Below, piece by piece: positions 23,893 through 36,075 of a DNA stretch of 64,000 bases. The stretch is taken from positions 311,984,001 to 312,048,000 of the forward strand of contig OZ024741.1 in the NCBI GenBank assembly GCA_964016885.1, given 5' to 3'. A model generated the notes under the pieces. That model searched no databases. It was not told the DNA's origin and saw only the letters and a program-made list of their open reading frames with translations. Both the position numbers and the translations under genes were made by a program. The stretch is from Eledone cirrhosa. Its lineage: Eukaryota. Within the stretch, counting starts at the first letter, position 1, and every line of letters starts with the position of its first letter.

Positions 23893-24458
23893 CCAATGCC
23901 GCAGTAAGGTGCACTGCACCATCCGTCTGCATATATTATGCAACGATGCACAATCGGCTTATGCGGCTTCATCAGCGAGTATCGCCTAATCAATAACCAA
24001 TCGATCGATAGAATCCAAACACCAGCCCATGCCGGTCATGACTGTTTGTGACAACCGACACGGTAAAGCGATTAGCAACTAGCACCCGATACAACTCTAT
24101 CTCTCGACCGGCCACCGATTTACAAATTTTACGTGGTGGCGGGAGACTAGAAAACCAATATTTTGGTTCCCGTCGAAAGCCCTCAGCCAACGTGTCACAC
24201 ACAAACTATTAAGAGCTGAAAAGATGACTATTAGAAATAGCAGTCCACAGTCCATGTATAATAGAATAGTAGCATTCGGCTCATGTCTCCAACTCATATG
24301 GCTAGAGTAAAGCGAGAGTAACAATGGTAGTGCCAATAACCTTTAACAGACTTTAAATGCGATCATACACTATAGAGCAATAGTGTAGCGAGCTGAAATG
24401 TGTCAGCCGCGTGCGTAGATAACCAGTCTATTTCACAACTTAAGAGAGATTCAATAAT

Positions 24459-24630
24459 TGTTTCTACTTTAGGCACAAGGCCAGCAATTACCAGTGCATT
24501 ACTGGTACTTTATTTTATCGACCCCGTAAGGATGAAAGGCAAAGTCAACCTCGGCGGGATTTGAACTCAGATGGTAAAGGGACGTAACTATGCTGGAAAG
24601 CATGGCGTCCGACCCTCTACCGATACTGCC
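24459..24630 (-). mobile_element. Full-length tRNA-derived SINE
   Basis: Minus strand GGCAGTATCGG (A-box-like), GAGTTCAAATCC (B box), tail CCTTGTGCCTAAAGTAGAAACAATTATT. Confidence 0.9.
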
Positions 24631-24702
24631 AATCCACTTCAATAATAGCAGGAAAATAGAGCGCAATATCAAAACAAAAACAATATTGGGAGTTAATAAG
24701 AA

Positions 24703-24876
24703 TTGTTTCTACTTTTGGCACAAGGCCAGCAAAGACTCAGTACATTACTGGTACTTTATTTTATCGACCCCGTAAGGATGTAAGGCAAAGTTAACCTGGA
24801 CGGGATTTGAACTCAGACCGTAAAGGGACATAAATATAGTAGAAAGATTGGCGTCCAACCATGTACCGATACTGCC
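24703..24876 (-). mobile_element. Full-length tRNA-derived SINE
   Basis: Aligns end to end with 24459-24630. Confidence 0.9.
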
Positions 24877-26689: not shown

Positions 26690-29600
26690 TTTCTTTATTG
26701 GTAACAAGGGCTGACATCAAGAAAAACATTACAGACGGCACAGGACGGCACAGGACGGTACGATGTGGGTTTTGTGCGTGTAAATAATTTTATTATTTAT
26801 ATAAGAAAAGAAAAAGAAAAAGAAAAAGACATAAAACATATATATATATATAAACAATAAAAATGAAAATTGAAACAATGAAAAATTCCCCAAAAAGGGG
26901 GAAACCTCCGAGGGTTACTCGTGGCGAAAACCACACAAAAGACCACGGCCACCCTGACTACCAGAGCAAGCGCCCTCTCTCAACTTTTCGATCTCTCAAA
27001 CTACAGGCGTATATTCAGAGCGGTCCCGTTCACTCGGACCATTCCCACTACATTCACCCACCTTTCAACAAACTTGCTAGAAGGCAGCACTTGCCTCTCT
27101 ACCCTGATTTTCCTCTTCAAGTGAAACTTTAAAAAGTTAAATGGGGATTCGCCGAAGAGGAAAGTGTCTGTCTTTAACCTTTTCAACCTTGTCCACCCCA
27201 CAATCTCTTTCGTCATGGCCACCAGGCAGATGAAAACCGCCTGCCCTTCCTCCTCGAAGGAAGACGGCGAGACCATCTGCACAATGGACTCAGTCGAGAA
27301 CCGGATCAGTCCTACACACGACAGCAACTTTTGGACATAGCTCCACAAGTCAGCAATGCTCGGGCACTAAACGAGTGCGTGCACGACGGTTTCGTCGCTC
27401 TGCGCGCATCTCGCACATGCTTGAAGAGCTTATCTCGAACCCGCAGTGCTCCCCGGTAGCACTGCCAGGCCAGGGATTTTGTGAAGTTATCCATAGGTCC
27501 TGGGCTGAAAGTTCTCTAGAAGAGAGCAAACAGCTGGTCTTCTTCGACGCCCAGGATCTCTACGAGAACGTCGTCGGTCTTCCCCTCCACTAGTCCTCTA
27601 TAGAACGCCGAGGTGGATGTTCTACAGATACTGATGCCCAGCTGGCAGAGGGCAGTGAGCGCCTGGAGATATTCCAGTTTTCAAGCGCTATCCCTCGGTC
27701 TTTTTCTGACCCAGGACTGCAGCTCCGTCAAGGAGACGAGCTGTGGGAAAACGTGCCTGGCTAACGGCGACCACACCTGTTCACCGTCAAGGAAGCACCA
27801 GAGATTTTGCAACCTCAGCGCGTGTTTGCGCATCTTCAGCCATGGCATGCCCAGACCTCCACGCAACGGGTGTTGACAGCAGATGGATCGTCTGACCAAA
27901 GGAGCCCGTCCCTCCCACAAAAAGCGGAAGAGGAGGCCCTCCATTTTGGTGAGAGTTGGGCCGGGGCAAGGGTCGACGGTGAGGCGGTAGCAGATGACGG
28001 ATACAATGTACGCATTCGCCACCTCCGCTCGGTCTTTCAGGGACAGATTCCTCTCGGCCCATTTCTGGGTGAGAGGGGCCACCTTGCTCGTCACCTCGTT
28101 CCAATTTTTCTCCATCTGGAGGTCCGGTCCGAACGAGACCCATGCAATTTAAACGGTCCGTTCATCCAACGCCCCACGACGCTGTCGGACGGCATGGACT
28201 TGCCTCTCCAGGTGCCGAGCTGCGAGCCCACCGACTTTTCCTGTTTTATCTTTGCTCCTGTCACCGCTTCGTATTCCTTGAGAGCGGTGCGAGCATCTGG
28301 ACGCGACTAGTGCTCGACACCACCAAGGTGAATTCGTCGGCGTCAGCCGACTCGGATTTCCCGCATTCTAGTTCGCGTGGGACGCCCCTCATCGCCCCCA
28401 GTTTGTGCAATAACGGCTCGAGGGCCAATACGTACAAGAGGGACGAGAGGATACAACACTGGCGGACTGAGCGCATGATGCTGAACGGCTGAAAACGGGC
28501 CCGAAACCGGCTGCATCGAGGACCGCCGCCAGGACCGATGGTCGACCCTATCGAATGCTTTCGATTGGTCCAAGTTGATCAGGGTCCCACCCGTGCCAGG
28601 TTTCTTAACCACCCTCTCTATGATGTATCGCATGAGGTGTAGGTTGTGTATGGATCTGTCCGTAATGGTGCATGTCTGCGCCTCTCCCACCAGACCCTTG
28701 ACGATAAGCGCCAACCTCGTTGCCAACACCTTGGCCAAAATCTTCAACTCTGCGTTTAGCAGGGTTATGGGCCTGAAATTATCGATAACATCCCCGTTGT
28801 TCGGGGCTTTTCTCAGCAGCGCCACCGCTCTCCGGCTCAAAAAACTGGGAATGCACCCGTTCTGTTGCCAGTTGCAGTAGACGTCTGCCCAGATGTCACA
28901 GAACAGGTCTGGCATAAATGCATAAAGCTCGTAGGGCAGACCATCCAAACCTTGCGAATTACCCCTCGTGCAGTTAGCCATCGCTTCCCATATTTCATCG
29001 GCTGTTATTGTCTTTTCGCAACACTGTGCTGCCGTCATCGAGAGCCGAGGCAGTCCGTCGAATTATGCACTGAAGTCCATGCCCCGATCCGGACCACCGC
29101 TGCTTCCGAACAGTTCAGCAAGGTGCTGCTGAAAATTTCACACATCTTCTCGGGTTCGAGCAATACGCACCCGTTTTGGTCAGACAAAGAGCGAATTGTG
29201 GCTTTGTTACTATGTCGCGCCTCTGCCACCTAGGCCCATTTGACGGCTTTTGTCCCCTCTTGTTTCAGAGCACGCGCTCTAGCTCTGAAAACGCAACCTT
29301 CGTGTTTTGCGTTGAAGAATTGGTCAAGTGCCAATCTCTCCGCAAGCACGTCGGTTATGATGCCTGTCCTAAACGCCTCTTCTAGCTTTCTGACTAGCTC
29401 TCCCTCTACTCTATTTTCCTCTATCACTACTCATTTGCTAAACCTAATCGACTCTACTTTAAATGCCCTTTTCAAGGCGAACCACCACCTGTTGTTGACG
29501 AACGCTCCCGTCAACGCCCGCTTAACTAATACGCTAATCTATTCGATACCTGTCTGACAGTTGAAAACGTCTGAGCAGGTTGGTGATGCTCTTGCACCCT

Positions 29601-31426
29601 CCTCCCCTATCCACTAGCCCAATACAATCCCAGCGTGCATTCAAGATACCGTTCCAGTCGCCCACTAACACTAAAGAGCGGGAGGTTCTCAAAAAGGTCT
29701 CTAGCCGTCTGAAGAAATCTGGCCGAACTGCCCCTGTTGAGGTGTAGACGGCTACTAGCCTGAAAGCATTGCCTTCTCTGCCGGTCTCGTCCAGCACCAC
29801 CGATGTACTTTCTGGGTCTAGGAAGATGGCCCGTATGGCGAGATCCAAGCCTTTCCGAAAAAGGACGGCAACCCCTCCCCCCGATCCTGGACGGCTGGGA
29901 GATGCGTACACATCGTAGCAGTCGAAAATCTGTGCGAAGGCTTGTGCTTCGGAGATTCTGGTTTCACTGATGGCCACCACATCTATGTTTAATCACCTGA
30001 GGTCGTTGAGAAGGTGACCCTGCTTCCAAGATGACCCCAGGCCACGTGCATTTATACTGCTTATTCTGAGTACAGCCATGTTAGATGATAAACGTGGCAA
30101 GTGAGAAAGGGTCACTTACCTTGATCGTGTGGTGAAGGGCCAGGAGAACCGTCCCTTTGGTTGGTCATGGGTGTTTCCAAGAGGATGTCAGTGTATATCC
30201 ACTTGGTAACCGACCCTCTGAAGTCTCCAACTGCGTTGGGGAATTTTTGTTTTAAAGTTTTGTACTGTTCTATTGAGATTTCAATGATGCTTATGTTTGT
30301 CGGGAGAGTTCTTGCTGTTGGTGGGGTGTAGTAGTTTTTTTTCTGTGATATCTGTGTGCTGCTTTATATATTGTATGAGTTCTTTTTTTGCCATTTTTAT
30401 GGCTGTGTACTTTTTGGGGGGAGGGGTGGTTTTGTTGCTGTTTGGTGTGTGTGTGTTTTGTTTTGTTTGTGTTGTTGGTGTTTTTGGTGATGCTGGTGGT
30501 GGTGTGGTTGTTGTTGGCGGTGGTGCTTGTGGTGGTGATGGTGATGGTGGTGGTGTTGTTGCAAGTTTCCTTGCTGCCTTTACCCCTGTTTGTGTGCCTT
30601 CGCTTTTGGAGGGTGAATCTAAGGGTTTATTTTCTTTTTTGTTTTTTGTGGCAGACCGTTTGACACTTCACTCCCGCCTCAAACTCCATGTCGGATTCCG
30701 TGGCGTCTGGGAGGGGTATGCGCTCCACGGCTGTTGGTGGTGGTAGTGGAACCCTCTTCGGCAATTTTGTTGCTGGTGTAGCTACTTCAAATGCAGCTAT
30801 TGGTGTTGCCGCCATGGATGTTGCTACTTTGGTTGTCCGTGGCCTTGGTACGGGTGCCACGGACGTTGCCCTCCTACTCACCGTGGAAGGGGCTTCTGCG
30901 TTTGTTGCCTTCCCTGCGACTTTACCGCTGTTATTTTTGTTGTTACTGTTGTTATTGATGGTGTTGTTGTTGGTGTTGTTGTTGGTATTATTGTTGGTGT
31001 TGTTGTTGGTGTTATTGTTGGTGTTGTTGTTGGTGTTATTGTTGGTGTTGTTTGTGTTAGAAATAGTTGGTAATTTTAAATCTGTAACAATCCTTTTTTC
31101 CTTTGTAATATGTTCGTTTATATTTACCTCCTCTGGAACGCTGTCTTGTTGACATGCTGATAAAGTCTCCCTCTCTCTGTGTTGTCTGACAGCGCTCTCT
31201 CTCTTTCTTGTGTTATCTATGTTGAAATTTTTTTCAAAAGATATTTTTACACACATACGACACCCCGTAAAGGGGTGCCGTATTATTTACGAGTGAACCC
31301 CTGTATTAGGTGGGTCTCTTCTTCTAAACTTTTATCAAATTAAAACTTGAATAAAATCTTTAGAACGGTTGAAAACGAGGTAAAACTTTGAAAAAAACTG
31401 GAAGCGATAAGAAGCGAGGCTTCACC
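26688..31426 (-). mobile_element. Tx1/L1-type LINE family A; both ends present, internal deletions, pseudogenised
   Basis: APE (VAISETR, LVAVY, LVGDWN), RT (NFRPITLLN, LDQSKAFDRVDH), C-terminal WQCYRGAL; AATAAA plus (ATT)n tail; (AAT)n on both flanks. Confidence 0.92.
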
Positions 31427-31450
31427 AACAATAATAATAATAATAATAAT

Positions 31451-31690
31451 TGTTTCTACTTTTGGCACAAGGCCAGTAATAAACCAGTACATTACTTGTA
31501 CTTTATTTTATCGACCCATTAAGGATGAAAGGCAAAGTGAACATCGGCGGGATTTGAACTCAGACCGTAAAGGGACGTAACTATGCTGGAAAATTGTTTT
31601 CTACAATAGGCACAAGGCCAGCAATTAATCCAGGGTATTACTGGTACTTCATTTTATCGACCCCTGTTAGGATGAAAAGCAAAGTTAAAT
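31451..31690 (-). mobile_element. Two tandem 5'-truncated SINE copies (~31451-31592 and ~31593-31690)
   Basis: Match to full copies; B box present in the first. Confidence 0.88.
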
Positions 31691-31832
31691 AGTAATAAAG
31701 AGCTGACATCAAGAAAAACATTACAGACGGCACAGGACGGTACAGGACAGTACGATGTGGGTTTTGTGCGTGTAAAGATGTTTATTATTTATATAAGAAA
31801 AGAAATAAAGACATAGAAATATATATATATAT

Positions 31833-32366
31833 AAACAAATAACGAAACGAAATTAAATTTCGTTTCGTTTGTAACTCACTTTTGTATGACTGACGCTTAA
31901 ACAATTAAGTTAAAAATGTACATCCACATATGTATACTGAAATACTAGTATGCATATGAATACACACACGTGTACATATGTAGATGTACCGAGTTTTTCA
32001 CTGGTCACTTTACTGTGAGTGTCCAGCTATTCTGTATGTAAACACACAGACAAACCGGTTTTTAGAGTCATACTGGTTTTTGAGGAAACACCTTTCCTCT
32101 ATTCTCCAGAAAGCCAGACAAGGAATATTGGACTAGTTTCGATGTTGTTACATCTCATCAGCAATATTTACCTATCTTCCGGCCTTTCTAGAGAATCGTG
32201 AAAGCACATATCGTTATATGCTTTTTCTATGAAAATTAGTAGTGGGCAGACCAATTTGCATAGAGCGTGAGTACGTACCGGTTCAACGGAGACGATAAAA
32301 ACAAATAACGAAACGAAATTAAATTTCGTTTCGTTTGTAACTCACTTTTGTATGACTGACGCTTAA
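31833..32366 (-). mobile_element. Retrozyme-like non-coding insert: one 466-bp unit plus 68-bp terminal redundancy
   Basis: 31833-31900 equals 32299-32366; carries a hammerhead; multiple hairpins; absent from the paralogous 3'UTR at ~26850-26945. Confidence 0.8.
32124..32168 (-). ncRNA. Type I hammerhead ribozyme (canonical core, minimal palindromic stem III)
   Basis: Minus strand AATATTG CTGATGA GATGT AACA ACATC GAAA C TA G TC|CAATATT: 7-bp stem I, CUGAUGA, 5-bp stem II closed by G-C, GAAA, GUC site; predicted cut between 32131 and 32130. Confidence 0.92.
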
Positions 32367-35300
32367 GACCACGGCCAACCTGACCACCAGGGCAAGGGCC
32401 CTCTCTCAATTTTTCCACTTCTCCAACTACAGGCGTATATTCAGAGCGGTCCCGTTCACTCGGAACATTCTCGCTACATTCACCCACATTTCAACAAACT
32501 TGCTAGAAGACAGCACTTGCCTCTCCACTCTGATTTTCCTCTTCAAGTGAAACTTGAAATAGTTAATTGGGGATTCGCCGAAGAGGAAAGGGTCTGTCTT
32601 TAACCCTTTCAAACTTGACCACCACAGAATCTCTTTCACCATGGCCACCAGGCAGATTGAAAACCGCCTGCTCTTCCTCCTCGAAGGAAGACAGCGAGAC
32701 CATCTGCACAATGGACTTAGTCGATAACCGGATCGGTCTTACACGCGACAGCAACTGTTCGACATAGCTCCACAAGTCAGCAATGCTCGGGTACTGAACG
32801 AGTGCGTGCACGACGGTTTCGCCGCTCTGCGAAATTGTTTCAGAGCACGTGCTCTAGCTCTGACAACGCAGCCTTCGTGTTTTGTGTTGATGAATTGGTC
32901 GAGTGCCAATCTCGACGCAAGCACGTCGGTTGCGATGCCTGTTCTAAACGCCTCTTCTGGCTTTCTGACTAGATCTCCCTCTATTCTATTTTCCTCTATC
33001 ACTACTCCTTTGCTAAACCAAATCGACTCTACTTTAAATGCCCTTTTCAGGGCAAACCACCACCTGTTGTTGACGACCGCTCCCGTCAACGCCCGCTTAA
33101 CTAATACGCTAATCCGGTCTCTGTAGGATTTGCGCGCCGGGAAAGACGCGTTCAGCTTCCAGTAACCGGGCCCTTGTCTATGAAGTCTGTCTATGTCGAT
33201 CTCACAGATCACAAATTTGTGGTCTGTGTAGTCGACTATTTTAAATTGTGGACAACTTATACTAGCCTTATCTAGTTTTCTGCAGAATACCCTATCGAGA
33301 TACGATCTGGATGACCCGATACGGTTTATCCATGTCCACATTGGCACATTCGGGTGATCCAGTCGATACCTGTCAGACAGTTGAAAACGTCTGAGCAGGT
33401 TGGTGATGCTCTTGCACCCTCCTCCCCTGTCCTCTAGCCCAACACAATCCCAGCGTGCATTCAAGATACCGTTCCAGTCGCCCACTAACACTAAAGAGCG
33501 GGAGGTTCTCAAAAAGGTCTCTAGACATCTGCAGAAATCTGGCCGTCCTGCCCCTGTTAGGATGTAGACGGCTACTAGCCTGAAAGCATTGCCTTCTCTG
33601 CCGGTCACGTCCAGCACCACCGATGTACTTTCTGGTTCCAGGAAGATGGTCCGTATGGCAAGACCCAAGCCTTTCCGAAACAACACAGCCACTCCGACCC
33701 CCGCTCTCGGACGGCTCGGAGATGCGTACACCTCGTAACCGTCGAAGATCGGTGCGAAAGCTTGCGTTTCGGAAATTCTCGTCTCGCTGATGGCCACCAC
33801 ATCTAGGTTTAGTGACCTGAGATCGTTAAGTTAGGTGGCCCTGCTTCCAAGATGACCCCAGGCCAGGTACATTTATATGAGCTGTTGTAAGTAAGGCCAT
33901 GTTCGGTGAGGAATGGAGTAAGTGAGAAAGGAACATCTACCCTCATCGTATGGGGAGGGGAAAGTTGAACCGTCCCTTTGTCTGGTGATGGGTGTCTCCA
34001 AGATGATGTCGGTATGTATCCTTTTGGTAACTGACCCTCTGAAGTCTCCAACTGCGTTGGGGAATTTTTCTTTTAAATTTTTTTAATGGTCTATTTTAAC
34101 TTCAATAAGGCTTATATATTTCTGGAGAATGTTTCGTGTTGGTGGGGTGTAGTAATTTTTGTTTGTGATGTCTGTGTTCTGCTTTATATGTTCTAAGAGT
34201 TCTTTTTTTGCCAAGATTATGGCTGTGTAATGTTTTTGGGGTGGTTTTGTTTTGCTGCTCTCTTCTTGTTGCTGCTGTTGGGTATGATTGTCTTGTGTTT
34301 GCGATGTTGATGTTTGCGGTGATGCTTGTGGTGGTGGGGTGGTGGTAGTTGGTCGTGATGGTGGTGGCGTTTCTGGGTCTCGCCTTGCAGCCTTTACCCC
34401 TCTTTGTTTGCCTTCGCTGAGGTGGATCTTTAACCCACAGAGATAACATTTTTGCCGTCTTCCTTCCACACTTATATGGAGTTGGAGTCCTTCCTCGTGG
34501 TCTATGATATCGGGGATAGCGATGATACACTTCTGGTCAGTTAGTATAAGCATTTGCATGCCTATACCTGACCAGTTCTCTCTCCCTATTTTCTCTACTG
34601 GCAGCTGGTCGGTCGTCCTATCCTCGCTTCCAGCAAGGACAGACGCGGCCAGCCAAGGTATGGGCACGTCGGATGGGACCTGGGTCACTTGACCCTCACA
34701 ATTTTCTGCCCGCAGTAGGAGGGCAACAAATCTTCTCCTCACTCTTTAGGGTTTCCAAAGAGTGAGATTTCGCGTCTTTGGGGGTAGCGAAATGTACGTC
34801 CACTGTGGCAAACTTTCTGCTCCGGCTGATGTGGGTTTTGTGCGCCCAGACGCACGTTCATGGCCTTTTGGATTTGAGCCTCCGTGGCTCTCTCCACCCG
34901 ATGTGACATTTTGCTTACGGTGCAGTAAGTCACCGTCCGTCGCTGCTGGTTCTTGAAAAACTCGGGTGGATGTTTCAGGGAGACTCTATTGGCGCTTCTT
35001 GTCACCATGGCCCTTGCGACTGCCATCTCCTCTTCTGTGACTAACACTGTCTCGATTATGTCGGGCGACACCTGCAAAAGAAGTGGTCCCTTTTTCAGCA
35101 GCACCACTATTGCTGCTGCTACTGGTCTTACTGGTGGTGCTGAGATCGCTGTTACAGTTATCGATGTCATTGTTGATGTTTAAGTTGGTACAGTTGTTGG
35201 TGTTGTTGTTATTGGTTTCGTTGATACTTTTGCTGTTGTTACTGTTATTGTGGCTGTTGTTATTATTGTTTGTTTTTGTTGATACTGTTCCTACTACTAT

Positions 35301-35844
35301 CGTTGTTGTGGCTGTTGTTATTGTCATTGCTATTGTCGTTCTCGACCTTACCGCTGTTATTTTTGTTGTTGCTGTTGTTAATGATGGTGTTGTTTGTTGG
35401 TGTTATTGTTGCTGTTGTTTGTGTAAGAAATATTTGGTAATTTTAAATCTGTAACAATAACATTAAAAATGATATTGTTCCTCTTTTCCTTCGTAATATT
35501 TTCCTTTATATTTACCTTCGCTAGAACGCTGTCTTGTTGATATGTTGACAAAGTTTCCCTCTCTCTGTGTTGTCTGACAGCACTCTCTCTCTCTTTCTTG
35601 TGTTATCCATGTTGAAAGAAATTTCTTTTTTCAAAATATATTTTTACATAATACGACACCCCGTAAAGGGGTGCCATATTATTTACGAGTGAACCCCTGT
35701 ATTACGTGGGTCACTACTTCTAAACTTTTATCAAGTTTAAAACTTGAATAAAAGGTAAAGAACAGTTGAAAACGAGGTAAACTTTGAAAAAAACGGAAGT
35801 CGATAAGAAACGTGGCTTCCTCTTCAATAATAATAATAATAATT

Positions 35845-36075
35845 TTTTCTGCCTTTGGAACAAGGCCAGCAATTACCAGTGCATTACTGGTACTTTATTT
35901 TATCGACCCCGTAAGGATGAACGACAAAGTTAACGGGATTTGAAATCAGAATAATAATAATAATAATAATTGTTTCTACTTTAGGCACAAGACCAGCAAT
36001 TAACCAGTGTATTACTGGTACTTTATTTTATCGACCCCGTAAGGATGAAAGGCAAAGTTAACCTCGCCGGGATTA
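35845..36075 (-). mobile_element. Two 5'-truncated SINE copies separated by (AAT)n
   Basis: ~35845-35950 and ~35971-36075 match the SINE 3' portion. Confidence 0.88.

Follow-up and report, generated by a model that had tools for sequence, protein, structure and literature searches.

Animal retrozymes without LTRs have been described by Cervera and de la Pena (2020, PMC7229834) and by Li, Clavereau and Pollet (2026, 10.64898/2026.07.22.740005). According to the accessible parts of these sources they are non-coding tandem units of a few hundred bases with low GC content and no LTR, each unit carries one type I hammerhead, and they range from dimers to long multimers and co-occur with Penelope-like elements (PLEs); the family presented here is alike in all of these respects. 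Its 466-nt unit is slightly above the 150-450 bp given in the accessible part of the 2020 paper (PMC7229834) and lies within the 51-972 bp given in that of the 2026 preprint (10.64898/2026.07.22.740005). The same part of the 2020 paper reports larger target duplications, when present, whereas we see none, and expression and circles have been shown for published animal retrozymes, whereas for our family both are putative. The insertion ends, the (TA)n targeting, the inverted arms and the two fixed starts are mapped here and appear in neither PMC7229834 nor 10.64898/2026.07.22.740005 as far as their accessible parts go. Circular templates for the more-than-unit copying of PLEs were proposed in 2014 and the mobilisation of retrozymes by PLEs in 2020, and the accessible part of the 2026 preprint (10.64898/2026.07.22.740005) adds phylogeny and leaves the mechanism open. 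The retrozyme class and its Penelope link are already in print, the latter from co-occurrence and phylogeny.

A pseudo-LTR, an inverted 5' copy and a tail are features of endonuclease-bearing PLEs (Craig et al. 2021, PMC8557442); one of these, Poseidon of the anole, has two RT start sites (Frangieh et al. 2024, PMC11167929). Compared with the accessible parts of these papers, our family is similar in its two internal starts that bound a one-ended tail, its inverted copies, its AT-rich or microsatellite targets and a hammerhead near the tail; it differs in having no ORF, a tail of about 68 nt as against 30-40 nt, and arms of many units. In vitro, the start sites of the anole enzyme did not differ between the strands (PMC11167929), whereas here an insertion nearly always has one of each. 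In an autonomous PLE with an ordinary pseudo-LTR an RT and GIY-YIG ORF is joined to the repeat, which is not so in the arms examined. Non-autonomous PLEs of Chlamys such as MRC1 are alike in being multicopy head-to-tail insertions of a non-autonomous PLE; in the accessible part of PMC8557442 their 3' sequence is shared with an autonomous partner and canonical hammerheads are absent, whereas the retrozyme has a hammerhead and no such link was found. Satellite 2 of newt and axolotl (HHR_Amex1 type) is also tandem, with a single-pair helix III and a palindromic tetraloop, but its sequence and host differ. In newt this satellite has been reported, at second hand in the part of PMC2220036 available, to have an snRNA-type promoter, possibly internal, whereas the unit studied here has a conserved octamer only, as a candidate. 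Plant LTR retrozymes have a type III hammerhead in the LTRs and a 4-bp target duplication, whereas the hammerhead here is of type I and there is no duplication.

In the present work a locus was analyzed in a window, which is the whole stretch of 64,000 nt from Eledone cirrhosa (contig OZ024741.1, positions 311,984,001 to 312,048,000), together with the family to which it belongs. We are confident that this family is an animal non-LTR retrozyme which behaves as a non-autonomous PLE. It consists of short tandem units, from dimers to multimers, with low GC content and neither ORF nor LTR, and it has two start sites bounding a one-ended tail, tandem and inverted truncated copies and an AT-rich or microsatellite target. 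The reading that we hold to be probably right is that the insert is a copy of a protein-free hammerhead tandem repeat, likely mobilised by the RT-endonuclease of a PLE, with a unit-length, predicted circular RNA as the template. Neither the 466-nt family nor the ends of retrozyme insertions are described in the literature searched, a scope that excludes subscription papers, Repbase, Dfam and preprint supplements.

Structure and target of the insert

The insert and its target are made of the following parts.

31820..31833, plus strand: (TA)7 target tract at the 3' end of the host LINE
31833..32366, minus strand in the ribozyme (RNA) sense: whole insert, a single arm of 1.15 units
31833..32298, minus strand: one 466-nt unit, 36% GC, no ORF of at least 150 aa
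32299..32366, minus strand: start of a second unit, whose 68 nt equal those of 31833-31900; the end of the arm falls where site B lies
26858..26938, plus strand: 81 bp in the paralogous LINE copy that are missing at the insertion
32739..33830, minus strand: endonuclease frame of the host LINE copy (AP-type by Pfam), outside the retrozyme

A sequence-only reading of the window had proposed a 466-nt unit with a 68-bp terminal repeat, and this holds: positions 31833-31900 and 32299-32366 are identical at 68/68 bases and the match ends at both flanks, which gives a period of 466. It had also taken the plus strand as cDNA primed at a target microhomology, AAACAA, at the start of the insert. The left AAACAA was found in the target, and we likewise consider the plus strand of the insert to be presumably first-strand cDNA. 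As claimed, a segment of the paralogue is missing at the insertion with no duplication, although its size is 81 bp (26858-26938) and not about 85 bp. This deletion is flanked by microhomologies (AAACAA on the left, AA on the right), and comparison with the paralogue and the LINE copies gave no target-site duplication. The empty site was seen in 16 of the 20 host-LINE copies fetched, so that it represents the ancestral state.

The host LINE copy (31698-34500) is without the RT part and Pfam finds in it only the AP-type endonuclease (32739-33830), while its paralogue (26700-30500) has the RT part too (28343-29062). An abundant SINE-like repeat has several copies in the window (24448-24845, 31441-31690 and 35823-36000). 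An abundant SINE that flanks copies in the genome looks octopus-like.

Family size and dispersal

The 3.0 Gb genome contains 2,643 exact copies of a 26-nt ribozyme core and none of the reversed pattern, a count that omits subfamilies at about 96% and 89% identity. When the unit was used in a similarity search, the best 40 of 353 candidates gave at least 191 matches. Copies with 99-100% identity are dispersed over many contigs; the family is young and of high copy number, at over two thousand sites that are mostly TA microsatellites. Hammerhead units follow each other head to tail at a spacing of 463-470 nt in arrays of up to about 31 units, in agreement with the retrozyme-type element with tandem multimers that had been predicted. 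The sequence-only reading had itself raised the option that the 68-bp repeat is a one-off local duplication or an assembly artefact. Against 2,643 core copies and 0 reversed, thousands of copies on many contigs and the presence of the unit in contigs of independent runs as well, this option is refuted and has practically no probability left.

Two local peculiarities were seen. One insertion is present twice, 17.7 kb apart (L209 and L210; G000:C1:55.97 and 55.99 Mb), as a segmental duplication or an assembly repeat, and at L127:197-3199 an internal deletion (unit 320-433, with part of the ribozyme) is found twice at 816-nt spacing and then no more.

Start sites and two-armed insertions

Two positions of the unit serve as starts.

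31833..31838, plus strand: site A, a fixed cDNA start, here the AAACAA microhomology shared with the target
31898..31903, plus strand: site B, the second fixed cDNA start (unit 66-71), which elsewhere is the start of the inverted partner arm

Most insertions of the family have a pair of tandem arms in inverted orientation, both primed in (TA)n, and with few exceptions one arm starts at A and the other at B. The two sites are about 68 nt apart in the 466-nt family. At 21 loci, which were picked by the ribozyme core alone in order along C1 and whose starts were counted by eye, 36 of the 38 outer arm starts are at unit 1-3 (A) or 65-74 (B) and adjoin (TA)n nearly always. Genome-wide, exact junctions between (TA)n and site A number 2,250 (control 4), and one form of the site B junction is found 1,131 times (control 18). 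The varied permutations expected from the sequence alone are not what these loci show (36/38 starts, 21 loci): since arms start at two fixed sites the permutation is fixed, and the inner ends alone vary. The interpretation put forward in the sequence-only reading is upheld as to the retrozyme, the priming and the multimers and fails as to the permutations, while the (TA)n targeting, the inverted arms and the pairing of A with B had no place in it.

The pairing was counted from both sides. For 59 A-anchored loci the partner arm begins at B in 42 cases and never at A, with 12 single arms, 3 other starts and 2 loci cut by an edge; these were taken from 60 of 100 listed A junctions, up to 91.7 Mb, with 12 junctions examined earlier skipped and one exact duplicate dropped. 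C1 has 67 B junctions up to 127.7 Mb; of the 64 examined, 53 have an A partner (41 by coordinates and 12 by reading), 1 has a B partner and 10 are single, other, edge or gap cases. A rule of always A and B is refuted by two B+B insertions, L311 and L330, the former beyond 127.7 Mb, and the only facing A/A pair by coordinates turned out to be two separate insertions.

The arms from A have a median length of 570 nt, with 34/59 over one unit, and those from B a median of 494 nt. At 79 inner joints we found an overlap of 1-8 bases in 37, a blunt join in 8 and extra bases in 34, and the 158 inner arm ends are variable and spread near evenly round the unit. Ends seemed too frequent at unit 456-466 (9 against 1.7 expected), but this was an alignment edge effect that disappeared when the query was extended (6 against 3.7).

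In this family the window copy is atypical: it consists of one A arm, which meets the LINE again beyond the 81-bp deletion. It has one ribozyme only, so we would not expect it to release a unit. Its end at unit 68 was considered as a programmed stop at B, which is not supported, as 4 ends are found there against 5.4 expected (5 against 5.4 in a second count with the extended query); speculatively, the end could be a join at the palindromic TTAA.

A second hammerhead family (837 candidates; L171:7560-9901 and L241-L270) has a unit of about 470-510 nt (~483 nt) with an internal variable TA tract, the same order of motifs and a 64-nt tail, and at 6 loci it has A and B ends in (TA)n.

A candidate Penelope-like mobiliser

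A search for GIY-YIG gave 10,596 candidates, of which the best 150 matches were scored and 50 loci fetched. The genome contains a family with RT and C-terminal GIY-YIG (Pfam) in which 45 of the 60 best matches are without a stop, at 97-98% identity. This young PLE family is located in (TA)n, its two ends are 63 nt apart, and all 7 simple loci with two arms have one end type per side, a count from which the compound locus L303/L304 was excluded. This arrangement agrees with the tail and the two RT start sites described for PLEs (PMC8557442, PMC11167929). The tail spacing is 68 nt in the retrozyme, 64 nt in the second family and 63 nt in the PLE. In the 3' region of the young PLE family a hammerhead-like motif with a palindromic helix III loop was read by eye. 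On the basis of this common footprint a Penelope-like RT-endonuclease is the likely mobiliser, as had been suggested from the window sequence and as the same footprint in the RT and GIY-YIG family supports. When the tail of the retrozyme was compared with the PLE 3' regions tested, no alignment rose above shuffled controls. By eye, 12 nt were found to match the 3' region of one PLE in opposite sense, and this was treated as chance. Because the tail matches no tested PLE, the partner is named by geometry only and is a candidate.

Another explanation would make the copies pieces of the pseudo-LTR of an autonomous PLE, truncated at the 5' end, or else an ordinary satellite grown by recombination. 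The ends and the target are indeed as in PLEs, the accessible part of the preprint relates Xenopus retrozymes to pseudo-LTRs (10.64898/2026.07.22.740005), and the examined loci are a few percent of the total. However, the arms go from unit to unit and not into an ORF (the first 20/20 A junctions fetched run into the unit), ending in TA or flanking DNA, the unit is a terminal repeat in 0/50 GIY-YIG loci (50 of 10,596 candidates), and dispersed copies with precise TA junctions are not expected from recombination. Copies attached to a Penelope ORF with fixed ends had been named in advance as speaking for an ordinary pseudo-LTR; the ends are fixed, yet no Penelope ORF adjoins the retrozyme among the copies examined. 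We regard this explanation as largely refuted and very improbable.

The young, abundant PLE family (L161, L162 and L291-L310) has many open frames of 775 aa, and its hammerhead-like core reads UUGAAAA where CUGANGA is expected. Another PLE family (L160, L164, L165, L168, L174 and L175) has a hammerhead-like motif about 400 nt past the stop, preceded by CCAAT- and TATA-like motifs, and L175 is an inverted two-armed PLE copy with ends that differ by a tail. At L163, L166, L170, L177, L181, L184, L187 and L197 short repeats with hammerhead-like motifs are located beside TA tracts and make up at least two more families.

Ribozyme and sequence motifs of the unit

Three motifs of the unit were analyzed.

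32108..32179, minus strand: type I hammerhead motif, HH9-like, with a full core and a helix I of 6 bp with a bulged extension
31841..31869, no strand assigned: perfect 13-bp hairpin within the tail between A and B, the least variable part of the unit
32254..32261, minus strand: ATGCAAAT, which we take to be an octamer motif and a candidate internal promoter element; kept in the second, diverged family

A type I hammerhead on the minus strand, with a cut far from the insert ends, had been claimed and is found. The Rfam HH9 model matches positions 32108-32179 of this strand over its full length with E 2.3e-8 and a score of 38.9 bits, short of the 52 set for gathering, and in the whole window Rfam gives no match at gathering level. 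The predicted cut (GUC^) is between 32131 and 32130, which is unit 299/298 and distant from both ends. Helix II has 5 bp and helix III consists of one pair, capped by a palindromic loop of four bases (32133-32136). Rfam also matches the unit with sraA, microRNA precursors and DUF3800-I, all far under gathering, and these matches were put down to hairpins.

Folded as a circle, the unit has an energy of -153 kcal/mol, with z -11 for the ribozyme strand and z -4.9 for the other strand against 40 dinucleotide shuffles, and helices I and II have pairing probabilities of 0.66-1.0. In an alignment of 7 hammerhead sequences from both families 6 of 14 pairs are changed on both sides and 96.9% of the cells are paired, compared with 37-49% in slid controls; the 7 sequences are related to each other, and these figures do not stand for a probability. 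The ribozyme core is retained in the commonest variants of 333 units. These compensatory changes suggest that the ribozyme is maintained by selection. The two families share the octamer and blocks of the tail, and an snRNA-type promoter in the 466-nt unit is a guess.

The template for copying

One of the questions regarding this family is which form of the RNA is copied. More-than-unit copying across the cut site had been proposed, and of 154 times that an arm reaches the cut site it continues past it in 147. Within unit 283-313 there are 7 stops against 5.9 expected, and 332 full units have 0 indels at unit 294-303, the joint being exact in 332/332. Since the arms cross the cut site, a plain cleaved linear monomer without jumping is excluded as the template.

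The haplotypes bear on the same question. Among 262 units of 31 arrays there are 24 distinct majority haplotypes, and no pair of units from different arrays shares two or more minor variants. Young arrays are near-invariant inside, with fixed changes between loci. The two arms of one insertion differ by a median of 0.54%, compared with 2.87% to other loci (n=69), and where it is measurable the mean is 0.73% across arms and 0.66% within an arm. The partner arm is the closest or tied closest in 33/69 loci and in the top 5% in 57/69, and a private variant is common to both arms in 4 of the 18 loci with full units in both. Many haplotypes, each fixed over arrays and both arms, favour a one-unit bottleneck. 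The read-through and the haplotype pattern together make rolling-circle copying of a monomer circle the favoured reading but do not prove it, and we consider a circle the somewhat more probable template. Arms could also be alike because a single source dominated at any given time, or through gene conversion afterwards.

One possible option is that the enzyme jumps from the 5' end of a cleaved linear monomer to a 3' end, which would give tandem cDNA with no covalent circle. Template jumping is known for non-LTR RTs, a one-unit bottleneck would be explained by it equally well as by a circle, and the inner ends are slightly in excess near the cut site (12 against 7.1 expected, of 158, p 0.055). 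Yet such jumps usually add or lose bases, while the joint is free of indels in all 332 full units and no clear stop is seen there (7 against 5.9 at 283-313), and we consider this mechanism highly unlikely.

Another hypothesis keeps the same family and PLE machinery and takes as template an uncleaved linear multimeric transcript of an array; the ribozyme would then be of minor importance for copying and the arrays would be kept by local expansion. A helix III of one pair with a palindromic loop is of the type reported, in the accessible parts of PMC7229834 and PMC4209133, to be poor at monomer cutting, so that uncut linear multimers may be common. In the parts available of two other sources, the anole PLE used unprocessed RNA in vitro and ribozyme mutants left insertion unchanged (PMC11167929), and 8/9 Xenopus retrozyme dimers were uncleaved (10.64898/2026.07.22.740005). 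Local turnover in old arrays also fits this hypothesis, which predicts read-through and exact junctions as well. However, from heterogeneous arrays ordered unit variants should be passed on, and 0 such pairs were found in 262 units of 31 arrays; distinct haplotypes that are each fixed through arrays and through both inverted arms point to a bottleneck of one unit, and the compensatory changes in the ribozyme also speak against it. We find a linear multimer less probable than the monomer circle.

In old long arrays 33/156 minor variants recur in scattered units. This suggests that such arrays were reshuffled, and array length is for the same reason not a clean read-out of the processivity of the enzyme; the stop rate drops past 1.4 kb. 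At L110 a 3-base insertion at unit 276 is present in 7 of the 17 full units of one arm and is non-periodic, and in the old long array at G000:C1:5738094-5752739 variants recur in scattered, non-periodic units. The recurring variants at L110 and in the C1 array may stem from exchange within the array or from errors made repeatedly on the same template.

Among the runs listed with the unit none is recorded as RNA. Four runs of unspecified kind were compared with the window, and in X4 and X5, which are labelled as other organisms, the unit is found as one closed contig of a single haplotype, 495 and 496 nt long (window:31872-32337), with the flanking LINE uncovered. Trace RNA or trace DNA may be its source, the contig fits a circle and a tandem array equally, and we do not count it as evidence for either. 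The X4 variants match those of the L130 array.

A model for mobilisation

A path that fits these data would begin at a locus with at least two units, where a promoter that is perhaps internal would drive transcription of the ribozyme strand. Two hammerheads may then pair via the palindromic helix III and excise one unit, and a host ligase would close it, by analogy with published retrozymes. A PLE protein, the presumed enzyme, would bind the ~68-nt tail and cut both strands of the (TA)n target that is observed at the loci. At A and B, where a microhomology of 2-3 nt is available, the two DNA ends would prime cDNA, in line with the fixed sites and the pairing found. Both cDNAs would cross the cut site, as seen in arms whose median length is about 500-570 nt and the longest of which have many units, and their extension would proceed by rolling round the circle. 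The two cDNAs would be joined at arbitrary points, which gives the inverted arms that are observed, and long old arrays would later be reshuffled locally, as the recurring variants suggest.

We also suggest tentatively, as a possibility that we rate below the path itself, that a dimer of the PLE RT-endonuclease grips one circle by the ~68-nt tail, primes both cut TA strands at the two fixed sites and rolls both cDNAs by strand displacement until they are joined head to head. If true, the insertions would document in a genome, for the first time, that a circle made by a ribozyme is copied into chromosomes, and the tail and inversion of PLEs would be the result of two active sites on one template.

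What is added here is evidence for PLE mobilisation at the level of the insertion, from thousands of young copies with a Penelope footprint. The family allows the one-A-one-B rule and the read-through to be counted, and intact candidate enzymes are present in the same genome. With a 466-nt RNA, a TA target and a frame of ~775 aa it becomes testable whether circles serve as template and how the tails and inversions of PLEs originate.
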